From NCBI GenBank assembly GCA_016699995.1, contig CP064996.1:528584-592583 (forward strand): a stretch of 64,000 nt of DNA. The letters run 5' to 3'. Each line of letters begins with the position of its first letter. Within the stretch, counting starts at the first letter, position 1. The notes under the pieces were generated by a model, which was not told where the DNA came from, ran no database searches, and saw only the letters and a list, made by a program, of their open reading frames with translations. The translations under genes and the position numbers were made by a program. The stretch comes from a bacterium (GTDB taxonomy: Bacteria > Patescibacteriota > Doudnabacteria > UBA920). Below, piece by piece: positions 10,856 to 33,987 of this stretch.

Positions 10856-10880
10856 TTAATTTATTATACCACAAAATTGG

Positions 10881-10904
10881 AAAAACCGGCCGGGCCGGTT
10901 TTGT
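10881..10904 (-). terminator. rho-independent terminator right after the ammonia-lyase remnant stop
   Basis: Minus strand: aaaaccggcccggccggttttt plus T-run. Confidence 0.6.
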
Positions 10905-11180
10905 TTAATTCTGAATTAAATCCTTTTTTAGTTTTTCAATCTCTTTGTATATCAAAGCGTCGTCAGCATAGAAAGGAACCTTTGATCTCACATATTCATA
11001 AGTTTCAGCATTGCCTTTACCAGCCTTTAATGGACTTCGCAATTCAACAGCCTGGGCAGCTGCCGCTAACTCGACTACCAAAATTTCAAATGCCATGTTT
11101 ATAATGTCTCTGCATTTTCGAGCAGCGGTCGTCGCGAAGCTTACGTAGTCTTCCTGGTTAGCAGAAGTAGGGATAGAAAC
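10905..11180 (-). pseudogene. hutH: C-terminal remnant (~90 codons) of an aromatic amino-acid (histidine/phenylalanine) ammonia-lyase; 5' part missing
   Basis: Minus-strand frame reads IPTSANQEDYVSFATTAARKCRDIINMAFEILVVELAAAAQAVELR..., matching the HAL/PAL C-terminus (SIPTSANQEDHVSMG..AARK; AIELLAAAQALD). The frame opens at a stop immediately adjacent to the res gene end at 11180. Confidence 0.6.
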
Positions 11181-13780
11181 TATTCAAGATCATCCAATTC
11201 TTCTAATAAATTTTCTAATTCACACCTAAATTTTTCTTGGCCTTTTAATATTCTCCCATCCTTCAAATACTCAAAAAATGTAGAATATCCTTCTGGACTC
11301 AAGAAATGAAAAATGTATTTTTGTTTAATTTTATTTTCCTCTAATTTATTGTTCAACCTCTCAAAATGTTCTTTCGCATATTTGTATTTTGCCTTGTTTT
11401 CATCGCTGTCGTCTTTGTCCGCTTTTATCTCAACAACAACAAAATAATCTACATTATCTTTTGTGATCTTGATAAAGAAGTCAGGATTAAACATCCCAAT
11501 CTTTTGGTGATTTGATGGTCTCCATGAATACTCAATGCCATAAAATCCACGATCCCGAGATTTTAACCACGCATCAATTTTCTCCGCAATATCCTTTTTG
11601 CAAAGGTTCTCGATGAATCTTCGTTCTGGTTCTGCGTTAGAAAAAACAACATTGACGGGGGTCTTAAACAAAAACTCATTTTGTTCCTTGTCGGCACTCT
11701 TGGGGAAACTCTCATCTTCTTTGAGCTTCTGCATTATGTTTCGTTGTTCATCGTCAAAGATCTCATTCTCCCAGTTGTTTGTGTAGAATAATGAATATCC
11801 ACGCCTAAAATTACCAACACCAGAACTTTCGCGGATGATATTTTTTGTAGAAATAACAACGGGTTCATTTACTTTTAATTGTGGCACAACTGTCTTGCTC
11901 TTTTTTCGCAGAAGTGTAGCAAAGGTATTGAGAATCTTATTGACATTTTTTTCGATGATTTGATCACCCTTAATACCAACGTTTTTCATGGATTTGAGAA
12001 TGATCTCTCGGATTTTTTCTTTCGGTGGGAGGTTATTTTGTGTGTACTGCTCTTCCCCGAGTTTCAATATTCTTCCTTCCCAATCTCTAATCTCAAATTC
12101 CTCATAGATTCTGTCCACCACTTCTTGAACAGTCCAAGTTCCGTATTCAATAACATAATTCTTCTCCCGAATATCTTTCGCAGTTATTGATTCATAAGAG
12201 GTGCCTTTTTCTGTTTGTATCACTTGAGAATCCAATTTGATACCTTCTTTTTCAATACGAGAATAATTAACAACTGGATTGGGTTTGTGTTCTACTTCCA
12301 CTTCTTCTTTGGTGTAATCAAGATTGTAAACATCAAAATGATATTTTGATCGGTCATCATTCTTAACAATCTCACTGATTATTCGAGTTTCGATTTCCAA
12401 CACTTCATCAACAAGAGCTTTTATACCTCTGCTCCATGCGTCATGGTTAAAAACAATGATTTTTGGTTGAGGAGTTGTATATGCCTCTGGTAAACGCAAA
12501 CCGCGCCCCAATACTTGTGCGATAAGAAGTTTAGAATTAAACGCCTTATCTTCCCATGGAACGATTTGAAAAACGTTTTTAACATCCCAACCTTCTGTAA
12601 GCATCGAGACAGAAACAATCCATTCAGTCGGATTTTCTCTATGATCAACTGTTTTCAATTTTGATAAATTGCCTTTATGATCCTTATGAGAAGTAACAAT
12701 CAAAACTTTTTCTTCAATACTTTCACGAGGTCGCCCCTCTCTCTTTTCAAGGAAATCAAGCAAATCTTCCATTAAACTTTTTGCCTTGGAAATATCTTTA
12801 GTGATCAAAATTGAAAGAGGTTTGATTTTTGGGTACTTATCAATATTCTCCTTGTGGTTTTGATATATTTTTTGGAACTTTTCATCAGTCCCCGAACTGT
12901 CATCTTTTTGTACATATTCAATATTCTTTACTATTCTATCTTCAATGGCTTCGCGCAAAGAATAGCGATAAATAACATCGTTAAAGTACTCGTTGTCATG
13001 ATACGCTGTACCAGTAAAACCAAGAATGTAACGAAAGTTGAAATCTAGATTTAATAAAAACTCCTTCCACCGCTTCAAACCTTGCGCTTCTGTTGTATTG
13101 CCAGATATTTTATTAAAAATATGGTGAGATTCATCATTAAGCACTAAAACGCGCTCGCCTTGTCTTTGGAAACTATCCTTAATCGATGACCCAGTTGTTT
13201 CATAAACTGCATGGATATTTTCAACACAAATACTTCCGTTTTTGACAGTGATATTTGCATCAACAATGCTTGGGTTTTTATAAAGAGCATTCGCTGGTAT
13301 CGATTTTTTGATTCGTGCATTCCCACTCAAATCCTCAAACTTCTCCAACAGTCCGTCTTCAATCGTCAAAGATGGGCAGAGTACCAAAACTTTATCTACC
13401 AAGCCTAACCCAAGCATGATTTGTGCCACACCATAAATTACATACGATTTTCCTGTACCAGTCGCTAAATCAATGTTTGCAAAAAGTTTATTAGGTAGCT
13501 GTAAATGGTGATGGTAATCGCTAAGGGTCGGATACTTTTCTTGCAGTTCGGGATTTTTATTGTAATTCTCATGTACTAAATCCTCAGTAGTAACATAACG
13601 CCCAGATGCAAGAAAGATAACCGCGTGTTTTATTGCTTCCTTTTGGTATTCTCTGTCTACACACAAGGTATCCAAAAAAGAATCCCATGCGCCCAAATCT
13701 AACTTTGTCGGATCATAGTTTTGATTCACTTTTAGAACCAAGTCTTTTTGTTTGTAAGTTTTAATATCCTGCATAGTCAT
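11180..13780 (-). CDS. res: Type III restriction endonuclease Res subunit (SF2 helicase + C-terminal PD-(D/E)xK nuclease), 866 aa
   Basis: Walker A LATGTGKSYVIYGV. DEAH-like VLNDESHHI. Helicase C motifs. C-terminal DFFIKITKDNVDYFVVVEIKADKDD nuclease-like motif. About 33% GC. Confidence 0.85.
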   Translation of the reverse strand: MTMQDIKTYKQKDLVLKVNQNYDPTKLDLGAWDSFLDTLCVDREYQKEAIKHAVIFLASGRYVTTEDLVHENYNKNPELQEKYPTLSDYHHHLQLPNKLFANIDLATGTGKSYVIYGVAQIMLGLGLVDKVLVLCPSLTIEDGLLEKFEDLSGNARIKKSIPANALYKNPSIVDANITVKNGSICVENIHAVYETTGSSIKDSFQRQGERVLVLNDESHHIFNKISGNTTEAQGLKRWKEFLLNLDFNFRYILGFTGTAYHDNEYFNDVIYRYSLREAIEDRIVKNIEYVQKDDSSGTDEKFQKIYQNHKENIDKYPKIKPLSILITKDISKAKSLMEDLLDFLEKREGRPRESIEEKVLIVTSHKDHKGNLSKLKTVDHRENPTEWIVSVSMLTEGWDVKNVFQIVPWEDKAFNSKLLIAQVLGRGLRLPEAYTTPQPKIIVFNHDAWSRGIKALVDEVLEIETRIISEIVKNDDRSKYHFDVYNLDYTKEEVEVEHKPNPVVNYSRIEKEGIKLDSQVIQTEKGTSYESITAKDIREKNYVIEYGTWTVQEVVDRIYEEFEIRDWEGRILKLGEEQYTQNNLPPKEKIREIILKSMKNVGIKGDQIIEKNVNKILNTFATLLRKKSKTVVPQLKVNEPVVISTKNIIRESSGVGNFRRGYSLFYTNNWENEIFDDEQRNIMQKLKEDESFPKSADKEQNEFLFKTPVNVVFSNAEPERRFIENLCKKDIAEKIDAWLKSRDRGFYGIEYSWRPSNHQKIGMFNPDFFIKITKDNVDYFVVVEIKADKDDSDENKAKYKYAKEHFERLNNKLEENKIKQKYIFHFLSPEGYSTFFEYLKDGRILKGQEKFRCELENLLEELDDLE

Positions 13781-13783
13781 ATT

Positions 13784-15748
13784 TTATACGGTGAAAATTT
13801 CAGCAAAGTCATTACCGTAAACATCAGTATAAATCACCATTATTTGCTTTCCCAATTCAGATTTTTTGAACGAAATTTCTAAACCCTTCTTCTCTATTTT
13901 CTTAAGTTCTGATTTTATATCCTCGTCATCGTCTTCTTTTTTATTTGCTTTCTTTGGCAAAAGTTCATCAGCAAAAAAAGCGTCATCCATTTCGAATGCT
14001 TTTCCATTGTAGCTTTTATCAACAAAGACAGCAGATAGGGTTTCGAAATTTTTCATCCCTTTCTCGTCTTGTGATTTGTCGGATTCAAGTTCTTGGCTAG
14101 TAAAACTCTTAATTAAGATTTTTACTCTATCCTTGTCTTTCTTTATTTCCGACTTTACTTCGGGATGTCGAATAAAGTGGAAACCAATCGCTTCTTCCAA
14201 ATCGTTCACATTCTTTTTACTTTGCGGTTGTCGCAATTTTAGGAATGGTGTTTTGTGGAGCTCTTTAATTACATGATATGGAATCTTGAGGAAGTAGTAT
14301 TTTACCCCGTCAATTTCATGGTAGTTAGAGAGAAAATCAACAAAGTTTGCTGGGGCAATAATATACACGCGACCACTTGCTTTCTTTCCGACAACTGCAT
14401 GTACATCTTTCAGATATTTTTCGTTAATTGTAGAGTTTTTGAAAGTTTGATAATCAAAAATCTTTACTGGGAAATCGCCTTTCATACCCTCAAATTCAAA
14501 CCCCGCAATTTTGTTTTTCTTGATTTCCACTTCAAAAAGCCCAGAGACAAACTCTTGATATTTTTGCCATTCCAAATCAAGTGCTCTTTTTAGATCATAG
14601 ATACCGAGTTGAGCAGTAACAAAACTTTTTGATTTCTTCCCGTACTTTTTATTTTGATCTTCTAAATCCTTTGAATTTTCAATTTGCAAAATGCGCTTTT
14701 GCATTGTGAAATAGGAAAGCTTACCTAGGTCACATGTAATCCATTTTCGTCCTAACTTTTCGGCTATATAAGCGGTTGCGCCAGAACCACCAAAAAAATC
14801 CATCACAATATCGCCTTCAACTGAAGCCGCTTTGATTATTCTCTCGATAAACTTATTTGGCTTCTCTGTCGGGTATCCAGTTCTTTCAACACCGTCTACT
14901 CTCAAACGAGCGGCGACTGAAAACTCCCACCAATCTTCTGGAACTTTTCCCTTTTTTCTTAATTCCTCCAAATCTTCCTCATCCCATCCTTCACCATCAT
15001 CAAAAGCAGTACGAAATGATTGATTAGGGTCTTTGTAAGGAACCCTGATCTGATCTTTGTTAAAAGTCCATTTATCCGATTTTGAGTACCAAAAAATCGT
15101 ATCGTGTTTCCTATTAAATTGCTTCATTTTAGGCGATCCTGGGCCTGTATATACCCAAATAATTTCATTCACAAGATGAAGTTCGCCGAATATCTCATCC
15201 AGTGCCAATTTTATGTAATGAGATTTTTTGTAATCGAGGTGGACAAATATACTTCCATCATCTGCCAATATTTCTTGTGCTAAAATAAGTCTACGTCGCA
15301 AAAACTCAACAAATTCTGCACCTTTCTTTTTGTCATTGTAAGCTTTTGCTCCTTCTTTGTTTAAGAAATCATCGGTAGTCGCAAAAGGTGGATCTATATA
15401 AATAAGCTTTACTTTTCCTTTCACCTTATCTTTTATCAGAGGGTCCTTATTTTCGTAAATGGTTTTAAGGAATTGCAGATTATCACCGAACACGATCATA
15501 TTTTTCCATCCATCCTTAAACGATTCGTATTCATTGCCATTGAAAACTTTTTCAGTTTGAAGAGGGACAGGGAAAACACCATCCTCATTTGCAAGCAAAT
15601 CTTCTTTTCGCATCTTCCCAGCATATACCAACTCATACTCTTTTTGAGTTGTTGGGAAAAGCAAGTATTTAAAATCGAATGGAATTTCTCTCCCGTCTTG
15701 TAGTGTTTTAACTAAAAATTCTGTATCAAATTTAGTGAGTTTTTTCAT
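13784..15748 (-). CDS. mod: Type III RM Mod subunit, N6-adenine (beta-class) DNA methyltransferase, 654 aa
   Basis: Motif IV IYIDPPFAT (DPPF/Y). Motif I VMDFFGGSGATAYIAEKLGRKWI. Immediately upstream of res, on the same strand. AT-rich. Confidence 0.85.
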   Translation of the reverse strand: MKKLTKFDTEFLVKTLQDGREIPFDFKYLLFPTTQKEYELVYAGKMRKEDLLANEDGVFPVPLQTEKVFNGNEYESFKDGWKNMIVFGDNLQFLKTIYENKDPLIKDKVKGKVKLIYIDPPFATTDDFLNKEGAKAYNDKKKGAEFVEFLRRRLILAQEILADDGSIFVHLDYKKSHYIKLALDEIFGELHLVNEIIWVYTGPGSPKMKQFNRKHDTIFWYSKSDKWTFNKDQIRVPYKDPNQSFRTAFDDGEGWDEEDLEELRKKGKVPEDWWEFSVAARLRVDGVERTGYPTEKPNKFIERIIKAASVEGDIVMDFFGGSGATAYIAEKLGRKWITCDLGKLSYFTMQKRILQIENSKDLEDQNKKYGKKSKSFVTAQLGIYDLKRALDLEWQKYQEFVSGLFEVEIKKNKIAGFEFEGMKGDFPVKIFDYQTFKNSTINEKYLKDVHAVVGKKASGRVYIIAPANFVDFLSNYHEIDGVKYYFLKIPYHVIKELHKTPFLKLRQPQSKKNVNDLEEAIGFHFIRHPEVKSEIKKDKDRVKILIKSFTSQELESDKSQDEKGMKNFETLSAVFVDKSYNGKAFEMDDAFFADELLPKKANKKEDDDEDIKSELKKIEKKGLEISFKKSELGKQIMVIYTDVYGNDFAEIFTV

Positions 15749-16279
15749 ATAAATTCTATTTGAGTCCCAAAAAAGTTAATCGAGATAAGTGAAACCATTT
15801 TACCATAAATCACACCTTAAATAAAGGGTTTTAGAGTGACCAAACCATCATTCGGCGTCATTAATCCGTTGCTCGCAAATGCAGAACATACTAAACTGAC
15901 ACCTGACGAGTTTAAAACAACTAAGAAAGTGAGATGCTGTTCTCTGCTCCCCCTAAATCGACAGAACAAGATGAACCGGAAGCTTTTTCTATCTATTCCG
16001 AAATAAGGGAAATGATGAATATGACATATAGGAAAAGCCTACATACCGAGAGATTGTAGAGAATTCATTCAGCAAAGAACTCCCGTGCCATTGAATATTA
16101 TCTGTTTCGCAGGAAGAAGCCCCAAAAACAGCTCGGCAACCTTGGGATTACTTTAGCTTCCACACACCGAATCCTTCTTTTAATTTATGATAATAGCACG
16201 TATATTAATACAGTGAAATTTGGCTCTCACGAGGAATAGCTTGTACAAACCATTTTTAATATAATTTTAATTTAATTTC

Positions 16280-17494
16280 CTACATCCCCATCATCTTAAT
16301 CAGACCATCCCGCTTCTTAGTCTCTGCCTTACTTGGCGGCAAAAAGGCACTATCTAGGTTAAAGTCCGTTCTGCCCGACTTTACGTTTTCCCCTAAAATA
16401 ATCTTGCGCGCTAAATATGTAAGCACGCTGCCGCACAAGTTAGCGGCATTACCCAGTTGCGGCCAAGAATAAATAGTCTTCCCTACCTGCATTACCGACT
16501 CTATCATGCGCACTGTGCTCATTTCTGCACCGGCCATCTTGGCAATTACCCGAGGCAAGTCTTGCGGGTGCACTTTGCTAAATTCCTGCGCCGTCATCTT
16601 GCCTAATATACCGTGCAGAATAGGATACTTTTTGTTTTGGTCGTAACGCTCGACGTCTACGATAATGCTGTCGGCGTTATCGGCGGCCATAATTACGGGA
16701 ATACCAAGTGGACGAGCTAATTCGCGGGCGCGCATCTTAAAGTACGGCTGATCCATTTCTTCTACCAACACATCCAGCTTTGCGGTACCTTTTAAGAACT
16801 TTGGCAAATTTTCTTTGGTTAAGCCATCAGCAAACAACTCTACTTTAGCATACGGATTCATTTCGTAAATCTGCCTAGCTACTGCTACAACCTTGGGTAC
16901 TTCTATATTTACAAACCCGGTACGAATGCGGTTCATGTTAGAGGCCGAAAGCACGTCTAAATCGGCCAACTTAATGTGCCTAGCGCCGCCCGTCATGGCG
17001 ATGGTTAGCGCCACATGGCTGCCTACACTCATGCCTAAAATACCGATTACCGAGTTGTAAAACTTCTTTTGTTCGCTGGCAGTAATTAAATTGCGGTTGC
17101 GGCCGGTGCGCACCTCTTGGTGCATAGCGTCCGGTAAAAAATGAATCACAGTGTGGAGCCAAGGATAGTAAAACCAATTGCCGCTAGTCACGTACTTGTC
17201 GCCCGAGCCGTTTTTGGCGGCAAACTGCTTAAACTCGCCGTGATAGTCTTTGTCGAACCTGTACTTAGGGTTGCGCAGCAAAAACACTTCTTCCAACTGG
17301 ATGGCATACTGGTCGATAACTTTTACCGGACGACGATCTGGCTTTACTCCGTTAGGCAGTTTAAGGCGGCGAATTTGCGCTTCGAAGTTCTTCCGCGCGT
17401 CTAGCTTTACCGGCTTAAACGAACTGCGGTCGAAATTGTCTTTGATTATGATTTTTTTTGCCATAGTTTTATAAACGGCGCCGCAACAGCGCAA
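16280..17494 (-). CDS. ThiF/MoeB/E1-like adenylyltransferase-fold protein with ~130-aa N-terminal extension, 404 aa
   Basis: GILGMSVGSHVALTIAMTGGARHIKLADLDVLSASNMNRI is the classic E1 Rossmann GxGxxG plus the D.D.V..SNLNRQ-like block. Confidence 0.7.
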   Translation of the reverse strand: MRCCGAVYKTMAKKIIIKDNFDRSSFKPVKLDARKNFEAQIRRLKLPNGVKPDRRPVKVIDQYAIQLEEVFLLRNPKYRFDKDYHGEFKQFAAKNGSGDKYVTSGNWFYYPWLHTVIHFLPDAMHQEVRTGRNRNLITASEQKKFYNSVIGILGMSVGSHVALTIAMTGGARHIKLADLDVLSASNMNRIRTGFVNIEVPKVVAVARQIYEMNPYAKVELFADGLTKENLPKFLKGTAKLDVLVEEMDQPYFKMRARELARPLGIPVIMAADNADSIIVDVERYDQNKKYPILHGILGKMTAQEFSKVHPQDLPRVIAKMAGAEMSTVRMIESVMQVGKTIYSWPQLGNAANLCGSVLTYLARKIILGENVKSGRTDFNLDSAFLPPSKAETKKRDGLIKMMGM

Positions 17495-17499
17495 ATTAA

Positions 17500-19047
17500 T
17501 TATTTAATAGTCCACTTTTGCTTGCCGCCCCCTGCAAAGTGAGGCGCGCTTTGGTGTTGCCACAGCTTTACCACCGGCACCATCTTCTTGCTAAAGTTAG
17601 AGTGCAGCACGCGATACTCAGAATTCTTTTTTAACAGCACCTTTATTAACGTATCGCGCAGTGTAGCAATAAACTTCTTAGACAGCTTCGCTCCGGGCTT
17701 AAGTTCGGTATTAACCTCTAATACCGGATTATGCTTTTTGTCGTAAGTGATGCGCATGGCAAACTTGCCAGTCGTATGTTTATTTGTTGCTTTTGTTAAA
17801 TGCGCCTCGCGCACATGCTCCGGGTAAATATTGCCGCCGTACCAGCTCACCACCATATCGCTGCGCTCGTATACGTACACAAACGGCAAATTCCAAACGG
17901 TGTCTTTCAATTTTGCCGTCCTAATCTCTTTATCCAAATCAATGCCGCAGTCTTTAGCTTTGGCCATCACCTCCTTGGCGCTCATTATTCCGCCGCGGTC
18001 CTTGAGGTCATACCTAAACAAGGGCAGGCCGCTAAAAGCCGAGCAGTACAAATTTCCATTGTCGTTTTCGAAATAAAACAGCTCCGGCAAGTATTGCGTT
18101 AGTGTGGGTTGCCTTTCCAAAGCAGCGTCATTTTCGGCAATGCCAGAGAATAACTTAGCTTTAAACTTTTTATTCTTATTGCTTAGTCTGCGCACCAAAA
18201 TCGACAGCGGGGTTTCGTGAGAGTGAGTCCCCTGGTCCACAGTGCCGTAATGATTAAGCGTGGAAGTATAGATATTTTTTAGGCCAGCTTGTTTGGCCAC
18301 ATAGTCGCGAAATGCTTCGGTAAAACCTTCGGCCGAAAAAATTATTCCTAAATTATATTTCTTCCAGTTCAAGCCTTCGCTTAACCCTTGGTCGATGGTG
18401 TCTTTAACAAAGGGAGGATAGCCACCCAAAATAACCTGGTCGTATTTATCGCCTAACTGGCGCATAGCCTTAATGATCTCCTTGCTATTTACGCCTGGAG
18501 TAATAATGCTGATGTCGTAGCCTTTTTGCTGCAAAATCTGTACGGCTTCGTAAGTGAACAGGCCGCCGATCCACGCGCCCATAGCAAACCCGTCAATGTA
18601 TAAAGTGGACTTCTTGTGGATCTGAAAGTTGTTGCGCAAGTACAGCTCAGCGGTTAACGCATACTGCCGGCTCTGCTCATGCGTGCGCGGAAAATAAAAC
18701 GGTTCGCCGGTGGTGCCGGAAGTGGCGGCATAAACGCTCTGCTGTTTGCTTAACACGCCGTCCCAGCACAGCTGCTTAAGCGGATACTTGCGCAGGTAGT
18801 TGTTCTTGTCGATGGTCGGAACCAAAGCAAAATCCGCCGCGCTCTTTATCTTTGCAGGGTTCACTTTGTGCTTTTTTAAAAAGTCCTTGTACGCCGGAAC
18901 CCTCTTGGCCATTTCGTGGAACAGCTTGAGAGCGCGCTGCTCTCCCCGCTTCTGCCAGAAACTTTCCGGCTTGGTCTTTAAGTTCTTTTCTAAGGATGTA
19001 ATATTAGCGGTCTGCAATGATTTGGGAAATGAAAGCTCGTTCTTCAT
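17500..19047 (-). CDS. adenylate-forming ligase of the phenylacetate-CoA ligase (PaaK)/CapK/coenzyme F390 synthetase family, 515 aa
   Basis: P-loop-like YAATSGTTGEPFYFPRT (SGTTGxP). The size and N-terminal motif arrangement are typical of PaaK-like ANL enzymes. Confidence 0.65.
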   Translation of the reverse strand: MKNELSFPKSLQTANITSLEKNLKTKPESFWQKRGEQRALKLFHEMAKRVPAYKDFLKKHKVNPAKIKSAADFALVPTIDKNNYLRKYPLKQLCWDGVLSKQQSVYAATSGTTGEPFYFPRTHEQSRQYALTAELYLRNNFQIHKKSTLYIDGFAMGAWIGGLFTYEAVQILQQKGYDISIITPGVNSKEIIKAMRQLGDKYDQVILGGYPPFVKDTIDQGLSEGLNWKKYNLGIIFSAEGFTEAFRDYVAKQAGLKNIYTSTLNHYGTVDQGTHSHETPLSILVRRLSNKNKKFKAKLFSGIAENDAALERQPTLTQYLPELFYFENDNGNLYCSAFSGLPLFRYDLKDRGGIMSAKEVMAKAKDCGIDLDKEIRTAKLKDTVWNLPFVYVYERSDMVVSWYGGNIYPEHVREAHLTKATNKHTTGKFAMRITYDKKHNPVLEVNTELKPGAKLSKKFIATLRDTLIKVLLKKNSEYRVLHSNFSKKMVPVVKLWQHQSAPHFAGGGKQKWTIK

Positions 19048-21252: not shown

Positions 21253-21885
21253 TTAGTCCTTAACTAATTCAGCCTTCACAATATATCTTTTGAGGGCCGT
21301 GCCAATCGGGTATGAAGTCTGCAGGGTCAAGATGCGCTTGCCTCTGGTGTTTTGCTCGAGCTGTTTGACGTCGTTGCTTTCTACTACGAACTTATCATAA
21401 ACTCTATAGACGTACTTCTCGCCCTCTTTGTTAGTAACGCTCACTTCGGCGCCGATTTGGATTTTAGGCAGCAACGCAAACACAGTTTTGTAATCACCCT
21501 TGCTAAAAGCAAAGTCGGACGAGTGGCCAAAGATGTAGCTATTGCCTTCGGCGCCAAACTCCGCGGTGCCGGGATAATGAACAACGCCGTTGGCTAGCGC
21601 GGCTTGAAACACCGGTTCGTTAGATTCGGTCACATACTGAATCGGTGCAACTACATCCAACGAAGGAATTTGAAGCTGGCTCGGCTCTTCTACAACTGGT
21701 CGCTCGCGGCGAATGTTCTCGCGCTGCTGTTCTGTTACAAATACCTGACTGGTGTAATAGCGAAGCTGCTTGAAGAAATATTCGTTGTTTAAGAGCGCGA
21801 AGATTGCTGCTGCCACGAGGACTGCGATCACTGCCCATTTTATAATTTTACCTAGCATAAATTGAATGTGCGCCGAAATGCGCAT
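21253..21885 (-). CDS. sortase-family transpeptidase homologue with Ser in place of the catalytic Cys (protein contains no Cys), 210 aa
   Basis: N-terminal TM anchor. His-motif IFGHSSD. The TLxTC block reads RILTLQTSYPIG (DNA acc ctg cag act tca tac). Arg follows in LKRYIV. Adjacent to an LPRTG-bearing substrate. Confidence 0.65.
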   Translation of the reverse strand: MRISAHIQFMLGKIIKWAVIAVLVAAAIFALLNNEYFFKQLRYYTSQVFVTEQQRENIRRERPVVEEPSQLQIPSLDVVAPIQYVTESNEPVFQAALANGVVHYPGTAEFGAEGNSYIFGHSSDFAFSKGDYKTVFALLPKIQIGAEVSVTNKEGEKYVYRVYDKFVVESNDVKQLEQNTRGKRILTLQTSYPIGTALKRYIVKAELVKD

Positions 21886-21894
21886 TAGTTGTTA

Positions 21895-21930
21895 AAAGAA
21901 AAAACTACCTTATTGCTAAGGTAGTTTTAT
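21895..21930 (-). terminator. rho-independent terminator after the giant surface-protein gene
   Basis: aaaactaccttagcaataaggtagttttttc on the minus strand. Confidence 0.6.
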
Positions 21931-21938
21931 TATATCAC

Positions 21939-24900
21939 TTATTTTTGTTTGCTTGCCTTAACCTCTACGGTCGCATATTTGGGCAATAACACGATGGTTA
22001 ATAATCCCAAAATAGTGAATACAATAGAAGCTGGGGTTCCGGTACGAGGCAATGTTGTAGCGCCTAATACAGAACCAGTAGGAGCGGGAGTTTCTTGGTC
22101 GCTAGGGGTATTAGTAGAATCTCCCAGGACTCGTCCTGTTGGTGGAGGTGGAGTTTGGCCACCGCCGCCTCCGCCCGAGCTTCCGCCAGAGCCGCCATTG
22201 CCGCCGTTGCCGCCGCGGCCATTGTCGAAGTTACCGAAGTTGACCCCTACAGCATCCCCTGCTGAAGTAATTAGCAAAGGTCCTGCTGCAGCATGAGCAG
22301 TTTTAATGAATAGTGAAGCAAAGAATCCTTGGCCAGAGTCGGTAAATAACTCGTTACAGTTATTAACTCCGCCCACGGCTACGTGATATGAATCAGAATC
22401 CACGTCTGGTTCTGTAACGATCCAGCCGCCCGGAGTGCTTTCTGTTACTAAATAGCAACCGGCTACTAGACCAGTAAACTGATAATTACCATTTTCGTCC
22501 GAGGTAGTACTGTCGGTAAAGGCTTCTTCTTCACCTAATTTTTCGATATTAATCTGCCAGCCTGGCAAACCAGACTCGCCTTCGTCTTTTGTGTTGTTAG
22601 CATTGGAATCTTCGTAAACTATTCCGCTAATTTTGTATCCGGAACCGCCGTTGCCGCCACCATTACAATCAAAGGTAACATCGTCCAGCTTGTAAATGAG
22701 CCCCGTTGGGTTATTAGGCTGGTCAAAAGCGTCGTTCTTTACTACAAATTTTAAGGTGTGAGTGCCAGCGGTTAACGCTAACGCGCCAGTCGTAGAAACT
22801 GTAGTAAAACCGCTGTTTGGAGCTGTACTGCCAACCAAAACATCGTCTAGATAAGCTTCTACAGAGTTGTCACCGGCGAAGCTCAATACAGGAGAATTAA
22901 TATTAATTGCCCCCGCAGGAATGGTAAAGGTATGAGAGAATAATCGGTAAGATTCTACGCCGCCGTTATAGCCGGCCGCGCCGCCAAATGTCGGCTGAGT
23001 AGAATCATTGCTTACGTAGCTGGCTCCAGCAATGGCCGAACCGCTCCAAGCTCCAGGATATCCGGTAGAATCCGCTGATTGTGCAAATCCCCAGCTTCCC
23101 AATGGATAATTGCCAATGTTAGTTGGAATTGGAGGTACAGAACCCTCACGAACACCCCAAGACAGAGTTACGCCTGCGGCGCTGGCTACAGAAATCGGCT
23201 CATCTACGCATGGGGCAATCTTTTCTATGTTGTACGCAATACAGTAAATATTCTCTGGGGTTGCTCCGTTAAGATTGATGAATTCTAGGTTGTCTCCGTT
23301 GAAGGCGTCGTCGTAACATCGCAGTGCAGCAAAATCATAACCGCCTTGAGTAACTTCGCTCACCCAGAAGTTGCCATTCTGAATGCCAGCCTGCAATTCT
23401 GCAGACAAAGCCGAGCCCGGACCATACGCAGCGGTGGTATAAGTACCATTAACGGTAGCTACGGTTTGGTTATCGTCATTTTGGTCTTGATCCGTAGACA
23501 GCAAGAACTGCCAGTTATGAGCCATGGCACAGCCATCCGGAATTTCCTCAGGATCGACGAAGCCGCCTACCAAAGGACTAGGTGAAAATGCGCCATTTGC
23601 ATAGTTATTGAAATAGACATAATTGCCGCCGGTAGCATCGTACGCGTCGCTCATTGCATTTCCTGCAACATCGCTAAAGCTGTCGCAAACTACTTTGATC
23701 AAATGCAGGTTTGGAACAACCGGTTCCGGCTGATTGCAGATTTCGTCTACTACACAAGCGTTAACTAGAGTGAAGCCAGGATTGCCGTCGAGCAATGGAT
23801 TCGGGCCTTCGACTGGACCATTCACAACTACGATATCGCCTTCCCCATCTTCATTCATCCAGCCATCCTGCATAATCTCACCCAAGCTGTATGTGCCGTA
23901 AGGAACATCATTCAAAGTTACACAGCCGTCTTCTTCTGTTACGCCAGAATAGACTTCGTAAATCTTCACAGTTAGCGGGCCGACGTTGTCGCCGAACCAT
24001 GCGGAGCTGCTATTATCAGCATCATTCTGGTTGGCAAAATCATAAACACGGAATTTAGCGGTAGAGCCGCTGCCGGTCATCAGATAGTTATAGGTATGAG
24101 ATGTATTGTAAGGGCCCCATTCTACAAAGCCGTCATCAACCTGAAGCTCAAGCAATTCATCTTGATACCCGCCCTGAGGAGCGTCTAAAACTGTGCTCCA
24201 ACCGTCCGGAGTAGTAAACTTGGCATCTACAGTTTCGAAACTGCGATTGCCCCACGTGCCACTGGCAACGGCCAAGTATTGCTTGCCGTTTTGCAATGTT
24301 GCAGAAGTAGTAGCCCCTAAAGGATTATTAGAGTTTACAGAAACAGTTTCTACTAGCTTGCCTTTTAGGAATACAGTCCAGCCAGATAATGGTTGATCAT
24401 TAGCATCGTTTACCTTACAAACAGTTACTTGAGATTCACAGCCAGTGTCACACTTGTTTACGAGGGTAAAGGTATCGCTGACACCGTCTACATTAGCGGT
24501 TTGGCCTTGGCCAGAAACGTTGGACCAGCCCTGCTGCATAACTTCGTCAACAGTGTAAGTTCCAAAAGGTACGTCTTTGAGGGTAATACAGCCGTTGTCC
24601 CCTGTTGTTCCTTTTAGCACTTTATAAATATCCACAGTTAAGCTGCCGGAGTTATCGGAATAGTTATCGTCCAAAATTCGGAAGTCCATTGCATCAGGAC
24701 CGCCAAGAGTACGGAAAGTAGAGTATTGGTGTGCCGGGTTAAAAGTAGAGCCCCAATCGGTGAACCCTTGATCAATCTGAATACCCAGCCAGCCAGTGTG
24801 AGGGTTTGGAAAATCGTTCACTCTCACCCATGGAGCAAAAGCCCCACCGTAAACAGGATCAGAAGGCAAGCGCTTAGAATACGCTGCATCAGAAGTAGAC

Positions 24901-26837
24901 GCGGCAGGATCGCCAGGGCGATATACGTAAGTACCGCTAGCTTCTACAACATATTGGCCAGCAGGCAAAGTTCCTGCGGTAGAATAGTCCGCGCCATCAG
25001 GATATACAGTCACTGTTTCAATTTTTGGACCCTTCAAATAAACTTCCCAGCCGGACAACGGATTCTGGTTGTTATCTAACTTACAAATAGTAACGTCGGA
25101 CAGACATTCCTGCTTAACGCTAACATCATCTACGAACGCTCCAAAAGAATCGCCCACCCCTTGGTCGCTGATTTCCAAACGAGTGACGCCGCTTGTAGCA
25201 GTAAATGTGTAAACATGTTCGGTCCAGACAGTATTAAGATTGCCAGTACCATCTTCTATAATTGTATCTAGGACAACTGCACCGGCCTTAACCTGGGTAA
25301 CATTCTGAGAAGAATTCTGCCCTGGACGAGGAGAAGTCCATAGTTTAACGGTATACTTGCCGCCGGGAACAGTGATTAAGTCTTGGAAAAGTTTAACAGA
25401 TCCATTTTCACCGTTAGTCGGGTCAGACGGGCCGCCCCAATCAGAATCTAGCTCAGTATGTTGAGAACCACTCTTAGGGTCCCAACCATTTACACCGCGA
25501 TGCAATTCGGCCTTTGCAATTGCAGGAGCACCGGTTGGATTAACCCAGTCTACACTCCAGCCTAGGCCAGGTGTACCAGAATCACGAACATCCCAGCTAT
25601 TAGAGAGTACAGGAGCTTCGAATCCACCATTAGCTACTAGCTCTGCACTACAAGGCTGTGGTGTTTTTAATTTATTAATAACTGTGTGAGTACATGGTTC
25701 TTGAGAATCTACGTCACAAACAACGTCAACACTTCCAACTGTTTGATCATCAACTTCCCAACCTGCTGGTAAGCCAGTTTCTGTAACGGTAATTTCTTGA
25801 CCATTATTAACGATTATTGCGTCGTGATTACAAACTAAAGTATCACCTTCATACTTACATGTAGCAGGTGCATTGCCGCCGTAGTTTACTGTAATGGTAA
25901 TATCATCTTTATTATCCGGAGCAGGAATTGGATTTCCTTGAGCATCCTGCCAAATTTTTTCAATTTCAATATCTACTGGAGTAGGTGTAGGAACAGGTTC
26001 AAAGTCATAGGTTGTAATCAATGAAGCAGTAGAAACCACCACTTTATCCAAATAACCATCTAATCCAGCGTCAGAAGCGGAAGTATCGCCAACATTCAAA
26101 GCAAACATGCGGATATTTGATCCTGAGCTAAAATTATTCATATCTGCCGGCACAGAAGGGCAAGTGTGAGGCGAAGGGTCTCCACCAGCTCTAGTTGTAA
26201 CTGGATAAGACTGTGTGGGATCAAATGTTACAGTTGTAAAACTACCTGTAGAACCAAAAGTTGGTACAACATTATATCTACAATCATAAAACTTGGTTGG
26301 GCTAGACGAACCAAAGTTTGCATAAACGTTCATGTAGAATTGCTCTTCATCAGTATTGTCACCGCCGCTGCCAATTTTAAAGTCATAGCTAATGCTATTT
26401 ATATCTACTATTAACTTGTTAATAAAATTTTCAGCGACCATCTTGTCTGCTGGTGTAGCTCCAATAGGTAAGACATTTAAGCTCCCCGACCCAATACTTG
26501 CCGCGTTTGTATTAAATGCAAAAGGAGTATCTGTGGAAGTATCACGGTTAAACATCCAGCCAGGTTGGTTTTCTCCAGCAGCTGTGTCGCCAGTAATAAT
26601 TATAGTATTACTTGGAATTGCTGGTGTATCTAAACTCTCACAACCACCCTGAGGCACAGGGTATACATCACCATGATTAATATGGGTCTGCAATGAATTT
26701 GAGTTTACACTTAAGCTATTGTATCCATTGCCAGTTTTGTGGCAAACATCAACAAAAGTTGTTGCCGCATAAGTGGTGGAGAGAGGTGCAAGCACTGTGC
26801 TTACCAAAGCAAAGCGCGATACGCCTTGATATGCCAA
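21939..26837 (-). CDS. giant (1632 aa) secreted cell-surface protein with LPXTG-type (LPRTG) C-terminal sorting signal, repeated SpaA/SdrD-B/prealbumin-like Ig domains, DUF642-like jelly-roll region and Gly-rich linker
   Basis: Signal peptide MAYQGVSRFALVSTVLAPLSTTYAA. Internal repeats (NPLSGWEVYLKG / QPLSGWTVFLKG; GTYTVDEVMQQGW / GTYSLGEIMQDGW). SdrD-B-like block SGIVYEDSNANNTKDEGESGLPGW...NGNYQFTGL. C-terminal LPRTG, then a hydrophobic stretch, then a KYATVEVKASKQK basic tail. Confidence 0.85.
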   Translation of the reverse strand: MAYQGVSRFALVSTVLAPLSTTYAATTFVDVCHKTGNGYNSLSVNSNSLQTHINHGDVYPVPQGGCESLDTPAIPSNTIIITGDTAAGENQPGWMFNRDTSTDTPFAFNTNAASIGSGSLNVLPIGATPADKMVAENFINKLIVDINSISYDFKIGSGGDNTDEEQFYMNVYANFGSSSPTKFYDCRYNVVPTFGSTGSFTTVTFDPTQSYPVTTRAGGDPSPHTCPSVPADMNNFSSGSNIRMFALNVGDTSASDAGLDGYLDKVVVSTASLITTYDFEPVPTPTPVDIEIEKIWQDAQGNPIPAPDNKDDITITVNYGGNAPATCKYEGDTLVCNHDAIIVNNGQEITVTETGLPAGWEVDDQTVGSVDVVCDVDSQEPCTHTVINKLKTPQPCSAELVANGGFEAPVLSNSWDVRDSGTPGLGWSVDWVNPTGAPAIAKAELHRGVNGWDPKSGSQHTELDSDWGGPSDPTNGENGSVKLFQDLITVPGGKYTVKLWTSPRPGQNSSQNVTQVKAGAVVLDTIIEDGTGNLNTVWTEHVYTFTATSGVTRLEISDQGVGDSFGAFVDDVSVKQECLSDVTICKLDNNQNPLSGWEVYLKGPKIETVTVYPDGADYSTAGTLPAGQYVVEASGTYVYRPGDPAASTSDAAYSKRLPSDPVYGGAFAPWVRVNDFPNPHTGWLGIQIDQGFTDWGSTFNPAHQYSTFRTLGGPDAMDFRILDDNYSDNSGSLTVDIYKVLKGTTGDNGCITLKDVPFGTYTVDEVMQQGWSNVSGQGQTANVDGVSDTFTLVNKCDTGCESQVTVCKVNDANDQPLSGWTVFLKGKLVETVSVNSNNPLGATTSATLQNGKQYLAVASGTWGNRSFETVDAKFTTPDGWSTVLDAPQGGYQDELLELQVDDGFVEWGPYNTSHTYNYLMTGSGSTAKFRVYDFANQNDADNSSSAWFGDNVGPLTVKIYEVYSGVTEEDGCVTLNDVPYGTYSLGEIMQDGWMNEDGEGDIVVVNGPVEGPNPLLDGNPGFTLVNACVVDEICNQPEPVVPNLHLIKVVCDSFSDVAGNAMSDAYDATGGNYVYFNNYANGAFSPSPLVGGFVDPEEIPDGCAMAHNWQFLLSTDQDQNDDNQTVATVNGTYTTAAYGPGSALSAELQAGIQNGNFWVSEVTQGGYDFAALRCYDDAFNGDNLEFINLNGATPENIYCIAYNIEKIAPCVDEPISVASAAGVTLSWGVREGSVPPIPTNIGNYPLGSWGFAQSADSTGYPGAWSGSAIAGASYVSNDSTQPTFGGAAGYNGGVESYRLFSHTFTIPAGAININSPVLSFAGDNSVEAYLDDVLVGSTAPNSGFTTVSTTGALALTAGTHTLKFVVKNDAFDQPNNPTGLIYKLDDVTFDCNGGGNGGSGYKISGIVYEDSNANNTKDEGESGLPGWQINIEKLGEEEAFTDSTTSDENGNYQFTGLVAGCYLVTESTPGGWIVTEPDVDSDSYHVAVGGVNNCNELFTDSGQGFFASLFIKTAHAAAGPLLITSAGDAVGVNFGNFDNGRGGNGGNGGSGGSSGGGGGGQTPPPPTGRVLGDSTNTPSDQETPAPTGSVLGATTLPRTGTPASIVFTILGLLTIVLLPKYATVEVKASKQK

Positions 26838-28634: not shown

Positions 28635-28675
28635 ATAAAAAAAGGCAGTTCTAATCGAACTGCCTTGTATTAATT
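28635..28675. terminator. hairpin aaggcagttc-taatc-gaactgcctt between convergent genes (bidirectional terminator)
   Basis: 10-bp perfect stem flanked by A/T runs. Confidence 0.55.
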
Positions 28676-29224: not shown

Positions 29225-29968
29225 TTATAGTTCCTCCATACTTTTTGACGAGACCGCTCTTTGAGCAAGCCCCTTGATACTACAATATACAATATCCGGG
29301 AAAAAAGGCTTCTCGGTATAGTACACATTGTAGAAAACTTCACCCATTAGTGCCGCCACCCGCCAGTTGGTGAAAATCAGTTGGGGGGCTCCTGCGACAG
29401 CCAGTTCTTCACAACCGGCTTCGCCTGGATTCTTATCCTTTGGATCACCGATCGAAGGCGAGCTTTCGACTAGGGATTTAGTGAAATTTTCACCATCTTT
29501 CCTAATGTACAGCTGTACGCTTCCGTCGTCAAACTCATTTCCGCCGCAGATCATCACCGCATCGGCGAGATCTTCGAACCGTTCGGAAAAGAGCTTTCGT
29601 GAAGCATTATTATCCACTCCCATGAACACCAGATCATTTTCCCGGACATGCCGGTTGATGTTAGCCTTGGTTACGTACTCCATGACTGTCGATATTCTGA
29701 GATTGGTAAAATGCGCGACTTGATCTCTCAGAAGCTCGGCCTTATAGCCAAGCCCGTTGAAATTTTGTCTGGTAAAATTCCGTTCTTCTACTTTGTCGCC
29801 ATCGATGAGGACGATCTCCGTCTTTTCTCCACCTTCCTTATGGGCAAAGTGCAGAAATCGGCATAGGGGCGGGACAAGCCAGCCCCCAATGCCGCCACAT
29901 CCAACCACGACAATGCGGTTGAATTTATTGATCATTAGTTCCCTCCTTAACTGCCGTTTCAGTTGCAA
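29225..29968 (-). CDS. minimal E1-like (ThiF/MoeB superfamily) adenylyltransferase, 247 aa
   Basis: NRIVVVGCGGIGGWLVPPL...IVLIDGDKVEERNFTRQNF is the E1 nucleotide-binding signature. No rhodanese or Cys-rich C-terminal domain. 5' end overlaps JAB gene by ~44 nt. Confidence 0.75.
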   Translation of the reverse strand: MQLKRQLRRELMINKFNRIVVVGCGGIGGWLVPPLCRFLHFAHKEGGEKTEIVLIDGDKVEERNFTRQNFNGLGYKAELLRDQVAHFTNLRISTVMEYVTKANINRHVRENDLVFMGVDNNASRKLFSERFEDLADAVMICGGNEFDDGSVQLYIRKDGENFTKSLVESSPSIGDPKDKNPGEAGCEELAVAGAPQLIFTNWRVAALMGEVFYNVYYTEKPFFPDIVYCSIKGLAQRAVSSKSMEEL

Positions 29969-31667
29969 CCTCTACTATCACGGCATCCGCTTCCGGAGCC
30001 GTTGGAGCAACAATGACCGGCTCCAAAGGTGTCGGAACAGGCACATAGGGTGTTGTCAAACTTAACGGGTTTACAGCACTGTGCGGTATCTTCGAATTGC
30101 CGCTGACCGAAACTTCAGCCTTCGCCGGAGCATTTGCTTCGGGCAGGGCTGGAGGTTTCGGAGGCGGTCCTTCCCCTGGGAGGTACGGTGTCGTTCTCGA
30201 ACCGCTTCTCGAAAAGGCTCCGGGATTTTGATTCATCCCGGATTTTTGGGCCATCGGTTTATAAGGTGGCCTAAAAAAGGATCTTTCTCTCACCATATCG
30301 AACCAGGATGTTGGGAAGTTGATCTGTTTTGCAGAAGTTATTTGCTCCGGCAAAATCAAATCATATTCCTTTCCAGTTCTAGACACGCCGCCAAACCAGC
30401 CGCCGTCATTGCTGCTTTCGGATACATACCCCTTAACCGACGGCCTCGGATTGACATCCTTGACAGGTTCCGGTTTTGGGGCAGCACCTCCGATCGGAAC
30501 AATAGGCACGGTATATTTCCACAACCGATGCCATGCGCGATAGGTATAGTAGCGACAAACGCCAAGCTGATGGTCTTCTCCGATCTTGTTCTGAGCTACT
30601 TCCGGTCCATCGAGTTCCTGCCATGTCCTCCACTTAAGGGAGATACACAGCATGATAAAGAATGAAATCGGCAAAAACAGCCAGAACACCAACCGGTCTT
30701 CGAACTTCACTCGTTCCGGGTACTTAAGCGTCGGTCGGTAAGACACGCTTCTTCGTACCTGGTCTGCGATCGCCGGACTTGCTTTTCCATGACCAGGCAC
30801 TACCGGGGTTGGATCCCCAGGAATAACCTGGATCTTTGTTGCGATTACAGCAGGCGGTCCGTCTAACGGCTGCTCTTGCGGCTGCTCCACAGCCACAGGC
30901 TGGGTTTCGACAGCCGGTTCCGGAGTCTCGACCGGTTTTGGCTCTTCCGCCTCCTTGGCAGCTTTTTTGATGTTATAAAGAAGCTTGCCTAAGGTATTGC
31001 CTTGATAAGCACTGCCGTAACTTGTAAGGACAAGCCCGTCGATCACATCTTCCGGTTTAACTTTAAACCGGCTTGCGTTGACCGACAGTTCGGAGCTGAC
31101 GGAGAATCCGCCCCAATCCATATTCCCCAAAGTTACGTGCAGACCGTCGAAGTTGATCTCATCGTGAGTATCGGTACCAGAATGATAGGCCGCGAAACCT
31201 GCGTGGGAATGGATAGAACCAACCAGCAGGTAGCCCGGTTTGCGGGGCGGCGGCTTGTAAGAGATGCCTCCGCCCGAAACATCCTGTTCCGGACATCCGA
31301 AGAAATACTTTTGGTCGTGCAGCGAGTAATAGATTAAGACCATCGCTTCGGCCTTGCGGGCTTCATACACCATCTTAAAAAAGTAAGCGGTATGAATCAT
31401 CTCCTTCAGCGGCAGTTTAGGCAAAAGCCATTCTGCCGATTCGCGATGAGGCGCAAGGTCACCAATTGCCTTCACTTTCACCGTGGCGTCCAGCACGCTA
31501 GTTCTCTTATGAACGAACGGGCCGTTGGAAGCCAAGATGTAGTGATAATCAGGCGGCTGAAATCCTGGTGCAAATAGCGGAGCCCCCGTCCTTTTGATAA
31601 AGACCGGGATATCCCCATTATTGTTTGCAGTCGGCACAGCCGGAGTAACGTTTATCTTTTCTGTCAT
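29925..31667 (-). CDS. JAB/MPN+ (JAMM) metallopeptidase domain protein with Pro-rich linker, single TM helix and large C-terminal region, 580 aa
   Basis: JAMM motif GSIHSHAGFAAYHSGTDTHDE (HxHx7Sx2D) with upstream Glu. PEPAVETQPVAVEQPQEQP linker. TM LVFWLFLPISFFIMLCISL. Start overlaps upstream gene stop (ATGA). Confidence 0.8.
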   Translation of the reverse strand: MTEKINVTPAVPTANNNGDIPVFIKRTGAPLFAPGFQPPDYHYILASNGPFVHKRTSVLDATVKVKAIGDLAPHRESAEWLLPKLPLKEMIHTAYFFKMVYEARKAEAMVLIYYSLHDQKYFFGCPEQDVSGGGISYKPPPRKPGYLLVGSIHSHAGFAAYHSGTDTHDEINFDGLHVTLGNMDWGGFSVSSELSVNASRFKVKPEDVIDGLVLTSYGSAYQGNTLGKLLYNIKKAAKEAEEPKPVETPEPAVETQPVAVEQPQEQPLDGPPAVIATKIQVIPGDPTPVVPGHGKASPAIADQVRRSVSYRPTLKYPERVKFEDRLVFWLFLPISFFIMLCISLKWRTWQELDGPEVAQNKIGEDHQLGVCRYYTYRAWHRLWKYTVPIVPIGGAAPKPEPVKDVNPRPSVKGYVSESSNDGGWFGGVSRTGKEYDLILPEQITSAKQINFPTSWFDMVRERSFFRPPYKPMAQKSGMNQNPGAFSRSGSRTTPYLPGEGPPPKPPALPEANAPAKAEVSVSGNSKIPHSAVNPLSLTTPYVPVPTPLEPVIVAPTAPEADAVIVEVATETAVKEGTNDQ

Positions 31668-33382: not shown

Positions 33383-33412
33383 CAAAAAATCCCTTAAATA
33401 TAAGGGATTTTT
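33383..33412 (-). terminator. rho-independent terminator of the rplM-rpsI transcription unit
   Basis: aaaatcccttatatttaagggatttttt on the minus strand, 15 nt after the rpsI stop. Confidence 0.65.
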
Positions 33413-33426
33413 GAGTATAAAAGGGA

Positions 33427-33987
33427 TTAACGCTTTGCCCACTGTGGCGAACGGCGCGCACCGCGGAGACCTGGCTTTTTTCGTTCCTTTTTACGGTCGT
33501 CTCGGGTCAAGAAACCGTTCTTCTTGAGCACGCTTTGAAGGTCGTTGTTAAGCTTAGACAAGGCCTGAGCTACGCCATGACGCACTGCTTCCACCTGGGA
33601 ATTGCGTCCGCCGCCGGCAACGTGGCTAGTAAAATAATACTCGCCCATCAAGCCGGTTACCGCCAAAGGACGGAGTGCAGTGTCTTGCTGCGGCTTGTTA
33701 GGAAAATAAGCTTCGAAAGCTTTCTTGTTAACAATATTGTCACCACTGCCTGCAAATAATCGCACGTTGGCAATCGCCGTCTTGCGTCGGCCGGTGGCAA
33801 AGATATATTTGCCGGAAGCAGGCTTGGCATGATCTGCAGTCTTCGCGCTAGAGGACTTTGCAACTACTGCCTTAACCTCCGCCTTTGGAGCTGCTTCCTT
33901 TTTTGGAGCAACTTTTTTAGCGACGGCCTTTGCAGGGGCCTTCTTGGCTACAGTTTTTTTAGCTGGAGTTTTCTTTGGAGTTACCAT
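33427..33987 (-). CDS. rpsI: 30S ribosomal protein S9 with ~60-aa Lys/Ala-rich (histone H1-like) N-terminal extension
   Basis: C-terminal ...GGGRNSQVEAVRHGVAQAL...KKPGLRGARRSPQWAKR matches the S9 end (..RRAPQFSKR). N-terminal PKKTPAKKTVAKKAPAKAVAKK low-complexity region. Confidence 0.9.
   Translation of the reverse strand: MVTPKKTPAKKTVAKKAPAKAVAKKVAPKKEAAPKAEVKAVVAKSSSAKTADHAKPASGKYIFATGRRKTAIANVRLFAGSGDNIVNKKAFEAYFPNKPQQDTALRPLAVTGLMGEYYFTSHVAGGGRNSQVEAVRHGVAQALSKLNNDLQSVLKKNGFLTRDDRKKERKKPGLRGARRSPQWAKR

Follow-up and report, generated by a model that had tools for sequence, protein, structure and literature searches.

A JAMM peptidase with a hydrophobic helix in the ubiquitin-like cassette of a Doudnabacteria genome

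The ubiquitin-like protein (Ubl) systems of bacteria and phages are actively studied, and their cellular site of action is largely unknown. The JAB peptidases of characterised bacterial systems cut precursors of the Ubl, its conjugates with targets, or both (PMC11601596, PMC10557695), and in the Bil anti-phage systems the JAB deubiquitinase BilC trims the residues that lie past the conserved Gly of the Ubl (PMC10557695). Flexible hydrophobic extensions were described for BubE, the protease of the Bub ubiquitination-like operon, and a peripheral membrane association was suggested by its authors (PMC11601596); BubE has an unrelated serine-protease fold, and its extension is not predicted to be transmembrane. 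A literature search led to no study of a membrane-anchored JAMM enzyme from bacteria or other prokaryotes and to no experimental work on PRTRC-type systems. Here we analyse a stretch of 64,000 nucleotides (the window) from the genome of a bacterium of the Patescibacteriota (Doudnabacteria, UBA920; GenBank assembly GCA_016699995.1, contig CP064996.1, positions 528,584 to 592,583), which encodes a JAB/JAMM peptidase with one strongly hydrophobic helix, referred to as JAB in the following. We give a probability of about one half to the reading that this JAMM peptidase, part of a four-gene cassette, is cytoplasmic and attached to the membrane without crossing it.

The cassette is a translationally coupled unit on the minus strand with the gene order E2-like protein, JAB, ThiF-type E1 and Ubl (Table 1), and the statement of the preliminary description that a JAB peptidase is encoded in a Ubl operon was thus correct. 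With PRTRC it has in common the JAB core, the order E2-like/JAB/ThiF (B-A-ThiF) and a small Ubl with a C-terminal Gly, but the B-A-ThiF order is represented here by distant matches only, with model scores short of the curated NCBIfam cut-offs (34 vs 101.8 bits and 55 vs 144.75 bits); the first of these is the match of TIGR03735 PRTRC_A to JAB (34.4 bits, E 1.6e-8, profile positions 28-186 of 192). Unlike in PRTRC, no ParB-type Pfam match was obtained for the four cassette proteins and two downstream open reading frames (ORFs). The size of the E2-like protein differs as well, with 535 amino acids (aa) here, ~830-850 aa on contigs catalogued as viral and ~250 aa at two plasmid loci matching PRTRC models, and the C-terminal region with the Trp element described below was not seen by eye in two plasmid PRTRC_A-like proteins. 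A PRTRC_A-like JAB on the Alicyclobacillus plasmid NZ_CP044435.1 (L084:4973-5914) showed an N-terminal region weakly matching PRTRC_C (E 0.0075, under the cut-off), and a fusion of Ubl and JAB would be suggested by this match; its neighbours are a ThiF gene and the gene of a Prok-E2_D protein, and phage-like genes are also present on the plasmid.

The best match of JAB to a solved structure was BilC (8tyx_B, E 1.8e-5), which is likewise a JAB in an operon with Ubl, E2 and E1, but the sequence identity is 20% and the solved chain of 162 aa is without linker, helix or tail. None of the PADLOC Bil models matched JAB, and BilD matched the E1 at E 0.011 only. As the Bil E1 consists of tandem adenylation domains and a Cys domain (PMC11601596), compared to a small ThiF-type enzyme of ~240 aa here, the cassette falls outside the Bil systems. 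For type II of CBASS (the anti-phage signalling systems based on cyclic oligonucleotides), the PADLOC E1-E2 models matched the E1 in their E1 part only, the E2-like protein being encoded by a separate gene, and no CD-NTase was found in the four-gene unit, which is therefore not a Cap3/Cap2 system either. Rpn11, AMSH/Sst2 and archaeal JAMM1 have the same fold and the same E...HxH...S..D zinc site as JAB at 13-15% identity; they have other accessory elements and no hydrophobic segment.

Inspection of the catalytic core confirmed that the JAMM motif HSHAGFAAYHSGTD (aa 153-166) is intact as described previously, but the Glu had then been sought in 'EWLLP'. This residue (E79) is not conserved, and the catalytic Glu is E107 (KAE107AMVL), which was found in 119/119 sequences of the family alignment. 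The site was set at E107...H153-x-H155...S163-x-x-D166, because all of these residues are invariant in this alignment; the remaining invariant columns are G49, Q128, G175, H177, G181 and, far downstream, W455. Beyond the JAMM residues, Q128, H162 and the stretch FDGLH177xTxG (aa 174-181) are invariant or nearly so in the family, and they might serve as a second metal site or as a substrate site. Pfam Prok-JAB matched the core weakly (E 5.5e-4, under the threshold), and Foldseek paired the JAB model with the MPN folds of BilC, Rpn11 and AMSH at a probability of 1.00. In the AlphaFold model, made with the 119-sequence alignment, the block means of the predicted local distance difference test (pLDDT) were >90 for aa 20-209 and 76-86 for aa 210-249. 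By sequence and fold comparison the JAB assignment is well beyond chance, and the protein is predicted to be a JAMM zinc peptidase with peptidase or isopeptidase activity.

An exhaustive HMMER search with JAB led to 2337 clusters at E<=1e-3 and 1135 at E<=1e-10. All 150 matches listed align to the JAB core (query residues ~40-215) and have total lengths of 217-588 aa, so that members of this family as a rule carry C-terminal extensions of 50-400 aa; their linkers and tails differ greatly in length and composition. The ORF, the Pro/Glu-rich linker and the one hydrophobic helix noted before were all found as described. Across the linker, to which PEPAVETQPVAVEQPQEQP (aa 249-267) belongs, pLDDT is mostly <50 (aa 263-320). 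The spacing of 209 aa between core and conserved element is the longest seen (family median 26, 95th percentile 63), and a linker of such length is common to JAB and one relative, P0073. The hydrophobic helix LVFWLFLPISFFIMLCISL shows a mean Kyte-Doolittle value of 2.54 over 19 residues, by far the maximum of the protein, and an additive Hessa sum of about -2.2 kcal/mol (Hessa 2005 scale, residue values simply added). It is the single segment of JAB with the length and hydrophobicity needed for spanning a bilayer. Pro333 is located at its centre, with the basic flanks R325 on one side and K345 and R347 on the other, and the whole stretch falls inside a predicted helix (aa 323-361) with pLDDT 60-79. 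The aromatic/basic helix HQLGVCRYYTYRAWHRLWKYT that follows has an additive Hessa sum of +20.6, too little hydrophobicity for membrane spanning. Windows overlapping its C-terminal half (aa 373-394) gave a hydrophobic moment of ~0.5, the value for the aromatic/basic segment CRYYTYRAWHRLWKYT; the moments of the aromatic helices are moderate and not decisive.

To compare the helix within the family, a 19-aa window with a Kyte-Doolittle mean >=1.8 outside the core was used as criterion for 217 distinct members with a JAMM motif. A strongly hydrophobic segment was detected in 2/217 members, JAB (2.54) and P0045 (2.32), and in 0/8 JAB copies from bacterial metagenome-assembled genomes (MAGs), in agreement with the earlier remark that such JAB proteins are normally soluble. 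The hydrophobic stretch precedes the conserved element in JAB but follows it in P0045, which is encoded on a 1.5-kb contig without useful gene context; a contig look-up by exact sequence gave no record for JAB itself. P0073 (512 aa) is collinear with JAB aa 43-468 (29% identity, E 4e-37) and has the long Pro-rich linker, the conserved element and a Pro-rich tail, but no hydrophobic helix; at the corresponding site the alignment shows a gap and a polar-aromatic segment. As judged from these alignments, the hydrophobic helix is the only unusual feature of this JAB, a local gain within the linker. The proposed search of homologues for helix and tail thus gave a divided result, with the conserved element and a tail being family features and the helix being nearly confined to the query.

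The region C-terminal of the hydrophobic helix had been described as ~270 aa in length and low in complexity. It comprises 236 aa and is no new domain, but the usual linker of the family, a ~35-aa Trp element and a variable tail. The tail, which measures 114 aa after the element compared to a family median of 108, is Pro-rich and variable, but the element GKEYDLILPEQITSAKQINFPTSWFDMVRERSFFR is conserved in the family. When a tail profile was seeded from P0002 and the query was left out, it matched JAB aa 432-466 at E 1.2e-7 with the consensus 'rYdlvlPeG.kdyedypFPkeWldkV'. All 119 aligned sequences have W455, and 108/119 have V459. AlphaFold block means are 87, 86 and 97 over aa 430-459, with a strand at 434-438, a helix at 453-457 and a strand at 459-461, and pLDDT is mostly <50 over aa 387-429 directly before the element. 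From such high values in a short element between two low-confidence stretches we infer that the element packs on the JAB core, so that aa 432-466 would fold back on the catalytic domain. The Trp element probably belongs to the enzyme and merits inclusion in biochemical constructs. The element KEYDLILPEQITSAKQINF also resembles the core strand around Q128 (QKYFFGCPEQDVSGGGISY, aa 118-138): in phmmer searches it weakly matched the Q128 region in many homologues, and MAFFT placed the isolated C-terminal fragment onto the JAB core of homologues. This likeness could reflect a duplicated strand or chance.

In the topology that we favour, the hydrophobic helix and the aromatic/basic helix would act as a pair that holds cytoplasmic JAB against the inner face of the membrane, with the hydrophobic helix being re-entrant or lying in one leaflet, and the JAB core and the conserved element would remain on the same side. 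The helix may thus hold JAB at the membrane, and a crossing is probably not involved. The same-side topology is inferred from the docking of the element, from P0073 as a soluble relative, from Pro333 and the basic flanks, and from the partners, as no Pfam or other family match points to an export of E1, E2-like protein or Ubl. Pro333, the basic flanks and the moment of CRYYTYRAWHRLWKYT are compatible with a non-spanning attachment. Monotopic enzymes of the PglC type have a short re-entrant hydrophobic helix with a mid-helix Pro, basic residues at the surface and both ends in the cytoplasm; there is no sequence relationship between PglC and JAB, and the analogy is a lead only.

Several points weigh against this topology. 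By hydropathy alone, a membrane-spanning helix is the default for a 19-aa segment of this kind, and 19 residues are short for a helical hairpin. The docking of the element is deduced from the confidence values of a model only, and the biochemical roles given for the four proteins derive from family membership. Since only one sequence carries the feature, there is also no sign of selection on the helix.

Among the alternatives, a helix unrelated to membranes appears unlikely, albeit the least so. It would be either a tolerated, possibly recent insertion into the linker or a helix for self-association or partner binding. The high variability of family linkers and tails in length and composition and the restriction of the feature to one lineage would fit such an insertion, as would the AlphaFold confidence of just 60-79 mentioned above. 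However, a hydrophobic run of 19 aa in a flexible linker is prone to aggregation or membrane insertion, and the aromatic/basic helix behind it is of a type common at membrane interfaces.

A true single-pass anchor, with the core in the cytoplasm and the last 236 aa outside the cell, is in our view unlikely as well. The hydropathy and the Hessa sum of the helix speak for it, as do the slightly more basic N-terminal flank (5 basic residues within 15 aa compared to 2 on the C-terminal side) and a sortase and an LPxTG surface protein encoded in the genome; Pro-rich tails that span the wall are known in bacteria using the sortase/LPxTG system. But a single spanning would bring the conserved element and the Pro-rich tail outside the cell, parted from the core, the E1, the E2-like protein and the Ubl. 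Each of the 119 aligned relatives has the element, and hardly any of them has a hydrophobic segment; in JAB the element keeps its conserved residues and is modelled confidently together with the core. A non-spanning attachment is favoured because of this conservation and joint modelling, because P0073 has the same Pro-rich tail without the helix, and because P0045 as the only other hydrophobic member has its helix after the element, as would suit a C-terminal tail-type anchor. Of the tether proposed in the preliminary description, the membrane association therefore stays plausible, while the topology with a transmembrane helix and an external tail is less likely.

Table 1. Location of the peptidase, its parts and the other cassette features in the window
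Feature	Position	Strand	Basis or remark
JAB/JAMM peptidase gene	29925..31667	-	580 aa, ATG start
JAB catalytic core, aa ~20-245	30933..31610	-	pLDDT, invariant columns, fold matches
Pro/Glu/Val-rich linker, aa 246-322	30702..30932	-	composition; low-confidence model
Hydrophobic helix LVFWLFLPISFFIMLCISL, aa 326-344	30636..30692	-	Kyte-Doolittle, Hessa, predicted helix 323-361
Aromatic/basic helix HQLGVCRYYTYRAWHRLWKYT, aa 366-386	30510..30572	-	predicted helix, low pLDDT
Conserved family element GKEYDLILPEQITSAKQINFPTSWFDMVRERSFFR, aa 432-466	30270..30374	-	query-free profile, W455/V459 conservation, pLDDT
Variable Pro-rich tail, aa 467-580	29928..30269	-	pLDDT mostly <55
E2-like protein, 535 aa	31664..33271	-	Prok-E2_D/PRTRC_B-like core; N301 and C312 in 'LPN......C.G'
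ThiF-type E1 adenylating enzyme, ~240 aa	29225..29935	-	likely start ATG 29935, 11-nt overlap with JAB stop
Ubl, 173 aa	28696..29217	-	starts 8 nt past E1 stop; C-terminus ...AGEKG-D
Terminator-like hairpin after rpsI	33385..33412	-	parts ribosomal operon from cassette
Two-way terminator-like hairpin	28642..28666	.	directly past Ubl gene, closes four-gene unit

The stop of the E2-like gene overlaps the JAB start as ATGA. In alignment A2, which comprises 43 E2-like homologues encoded at the same gene position, P262, N301, C312 and W367 are invariant, with the consensus 'LPNIxxxxxxCxG'. Several of the same-position homologues pass the threshold of 25 bits for Pfam PF14460 Prok-E2_D (such as L072 with 35.4 bits and L010 with 27.9 bits), some match TIGR03737 PRTRC_B under its cut-off, and an hhalign profile comparison with a PRTRC_B-like protein from a plasmid gave a probability of 77% (E 2e-5) with the motif covered. 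The copy in the window itself showed no direct match to the Prok-E2_D or PRTRC_B models, and its assignment therefore rests on these homologues. Word-indexed searches with the single sequence and the profile returned nothing but the protein itself, the A2 profile found nothing meaningful among PDB sequences, and the AlphaFold model of the E2-like protein alone was unusable (mean pLDDT 39.6).

The E1 matched Pfam ThiF (E 1.7e-12) and TIGR03736 PRTRC_ThiF (E 5e-15, under the cut-off). For the Ubl, weak matches to ThiS, Ub-Mut7C and TGS were obtained, and it probably holds two beta-grasp domains; its aa 107-172 are 41% identical to the 74-aa Ubl encoded at the same position of a related contig (L001). 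The C-terminus of the Ubl family reads LEF[LI]KPAG[KR]KG, with Gly as the last residue in 46/65 distinct copies. In 14/65 copies one residue follows the Gly, usually Cys (for example L007:8435-8908), and in the window copy this residue is Asp. On one side the cassette borders on ribosomal-protein genes, and on the other an unknown ORF and a LOG-family gene are found; the GC content of the cassette is near that of the neighbouring genes, and no phage genes were seen near it in the window.

With regard to the family, the closest word-index matches of JAB carry the JGI annotation 'PRTRC genetic system protein A'. A scan of the viral contigs in IMG/VR led to 124 contigs that encode JAB relatives, and gene order was examined for 83 loci, 80 from these viral-catalogue contigs and 3 from metagenome contigs. 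On 83/83 loci an E1 is located downstream of JAB, with very few exceptions as its direct neighbour, the Ubl was found on 78/83, and an E2-like protein (median 829 aa) was assigned by clustering on 78/83. Complete cassettes of E2-like protein, JAB, E1 and Ubl are therefore common on contigs catalogued as viral. On the viral-catalogue contigs (L004-L083, 20-572 kb in length), the cassette is part of a conserved block, and within ~6 kb on either side of JAB the neighbours include a multisubunit RNA polymerase beta-prime gene (56 loci), which matches a phage family (PHROG), as well as radical SAM (48 loci) and SbcC-like (30 loci) genes and several small unknown proteins. The best fold matches in BFVD were a 'JAB domain-containing protein [uncultured Caudovirales phage]' and the 'PRTRC system protein A' of an Acinetobacter phage. 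No PHROG matched JAB, the E2-like protein or the Ubl, and in the GenBank phage collection a single weak match was obtained.

Bacterial members were detected with a degenerate DNA pattern, which led to JAB family members on 8 MAG loci, with the full four-gene cassette visible on 4; genomes of Candidatus Moraniibacteriota and Candidatus Uhrbacteria are among them. A scan of the genome collection with the single JAB protein found no relative. On these sequence data the cassette family is large, experimentally uncharacterised, distantly related to PRTRC and located mostly on contigs catalogued as viral.

By analogy, the chemistry of the four proteins would follow the standard E1, E2, Ubl and JAB roles. 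The E1 would adenylate the Ubl at its C-terminal Gly, the E2-like protein would carry the Ubl to its targets on the invariant Cys312, and JAB would strip the single residue after Gly172 of the Ubl, cleave Ubl-target links, or both. In the window a trimming step is needed, since Asp173 follows the conserved Gly. For most copies on the viral-catalogue contigs trimming is unnecessary, as 46/65 distinct copies end exactly at Gly, and this suggests deconjugation as the main role of the JAB family.

A different chemistry, in which the cassette is a sulfur carrier of the ThiS/MoaD type and JAB only trims the C-terminus of the carrier like Mec+ and QbsD, is very improbable. The small ThiF-like E1 of ~240 aa and the frequent radical SAM neighbour on viral-catalogue contigs would be in line with it, but an E2-like protein with an invariant Cys accompanies JAB on 78/83 loci, the Ubl is usually tandem and mostly ends at Gly as given above, and Pfam found no rhodanese or sulfurtransferase domain among the four cassette proteins. 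That the ORF is an assembly chimera or frameshift artefact, for which its origin from a MAG and the unique insertion might be cited, has next to no likelihood, as it is one uninterrupted frame with both ends homologous to the family, homologues do have a C-terminal region (P0073 over aa 43-468), the GC content at third codon positions (GC3; insertion 0.55, core 0.56) shows no compositional break, no meaningful or flanking repeats and no Rfam match were found for the insertion, and the gene overlaps both neighbours in operon fashion.

Some further observations were made elsewhere in the window. A second ThiF-family protein of 404 aa (16280-17494, minus strand) has an adenylation domain matching many PADLOC 'E1-E2' models (best E 1.1e-9), with a 515-aa protein without family match just upstream (16280-19047 for both, minus strand). 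A type III restriction-modification pair (11180-15748) lies beside this gene in a stretch of 36% GC (10001-16000), and the locus may be another E1-based system in a defence island. At 21253-26837 on the minus strand, a sortase gene adjoins the gene of a 1632-aa surface protein with SpaA/SdrD-type domains, a C-terminal LPRTG signal and a hydrophobic anchor. Ribosomal protein S9 (33427-33987, minus strand) carries an N-terminal extension of ~55 aa rich in Lys, Ala and Pro. An ORF of 430 aa (4611-5903, minus strand) covers the first 430 positions, out of 552, in the catalytic-domain model for alanyl-tRNA synthetase and no more, and this enzyme may be split or shortened.

JAB is a single-lineage variant of a family known from computational annotation alone and as such of modest interest, and as the hydrophobic helix was found in one sequence only, its general importance is limited. 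It is conceivable, though doubtful, that the bacterium took over a tagging cassette of a kind otherwise seen on contigs catalogued as viral and gave its JAMM peptidase a non-spanning anchor, so that the tag would be removed or matured at the inner face of the membrane only. If the membrane attachment is true, no peptidase of a prokaryotic Ubl system would have been membrane-localised before JAB. Tagging by the cassette would then gain a spatial component, and JAB would offer a natural construct for locating its targets.

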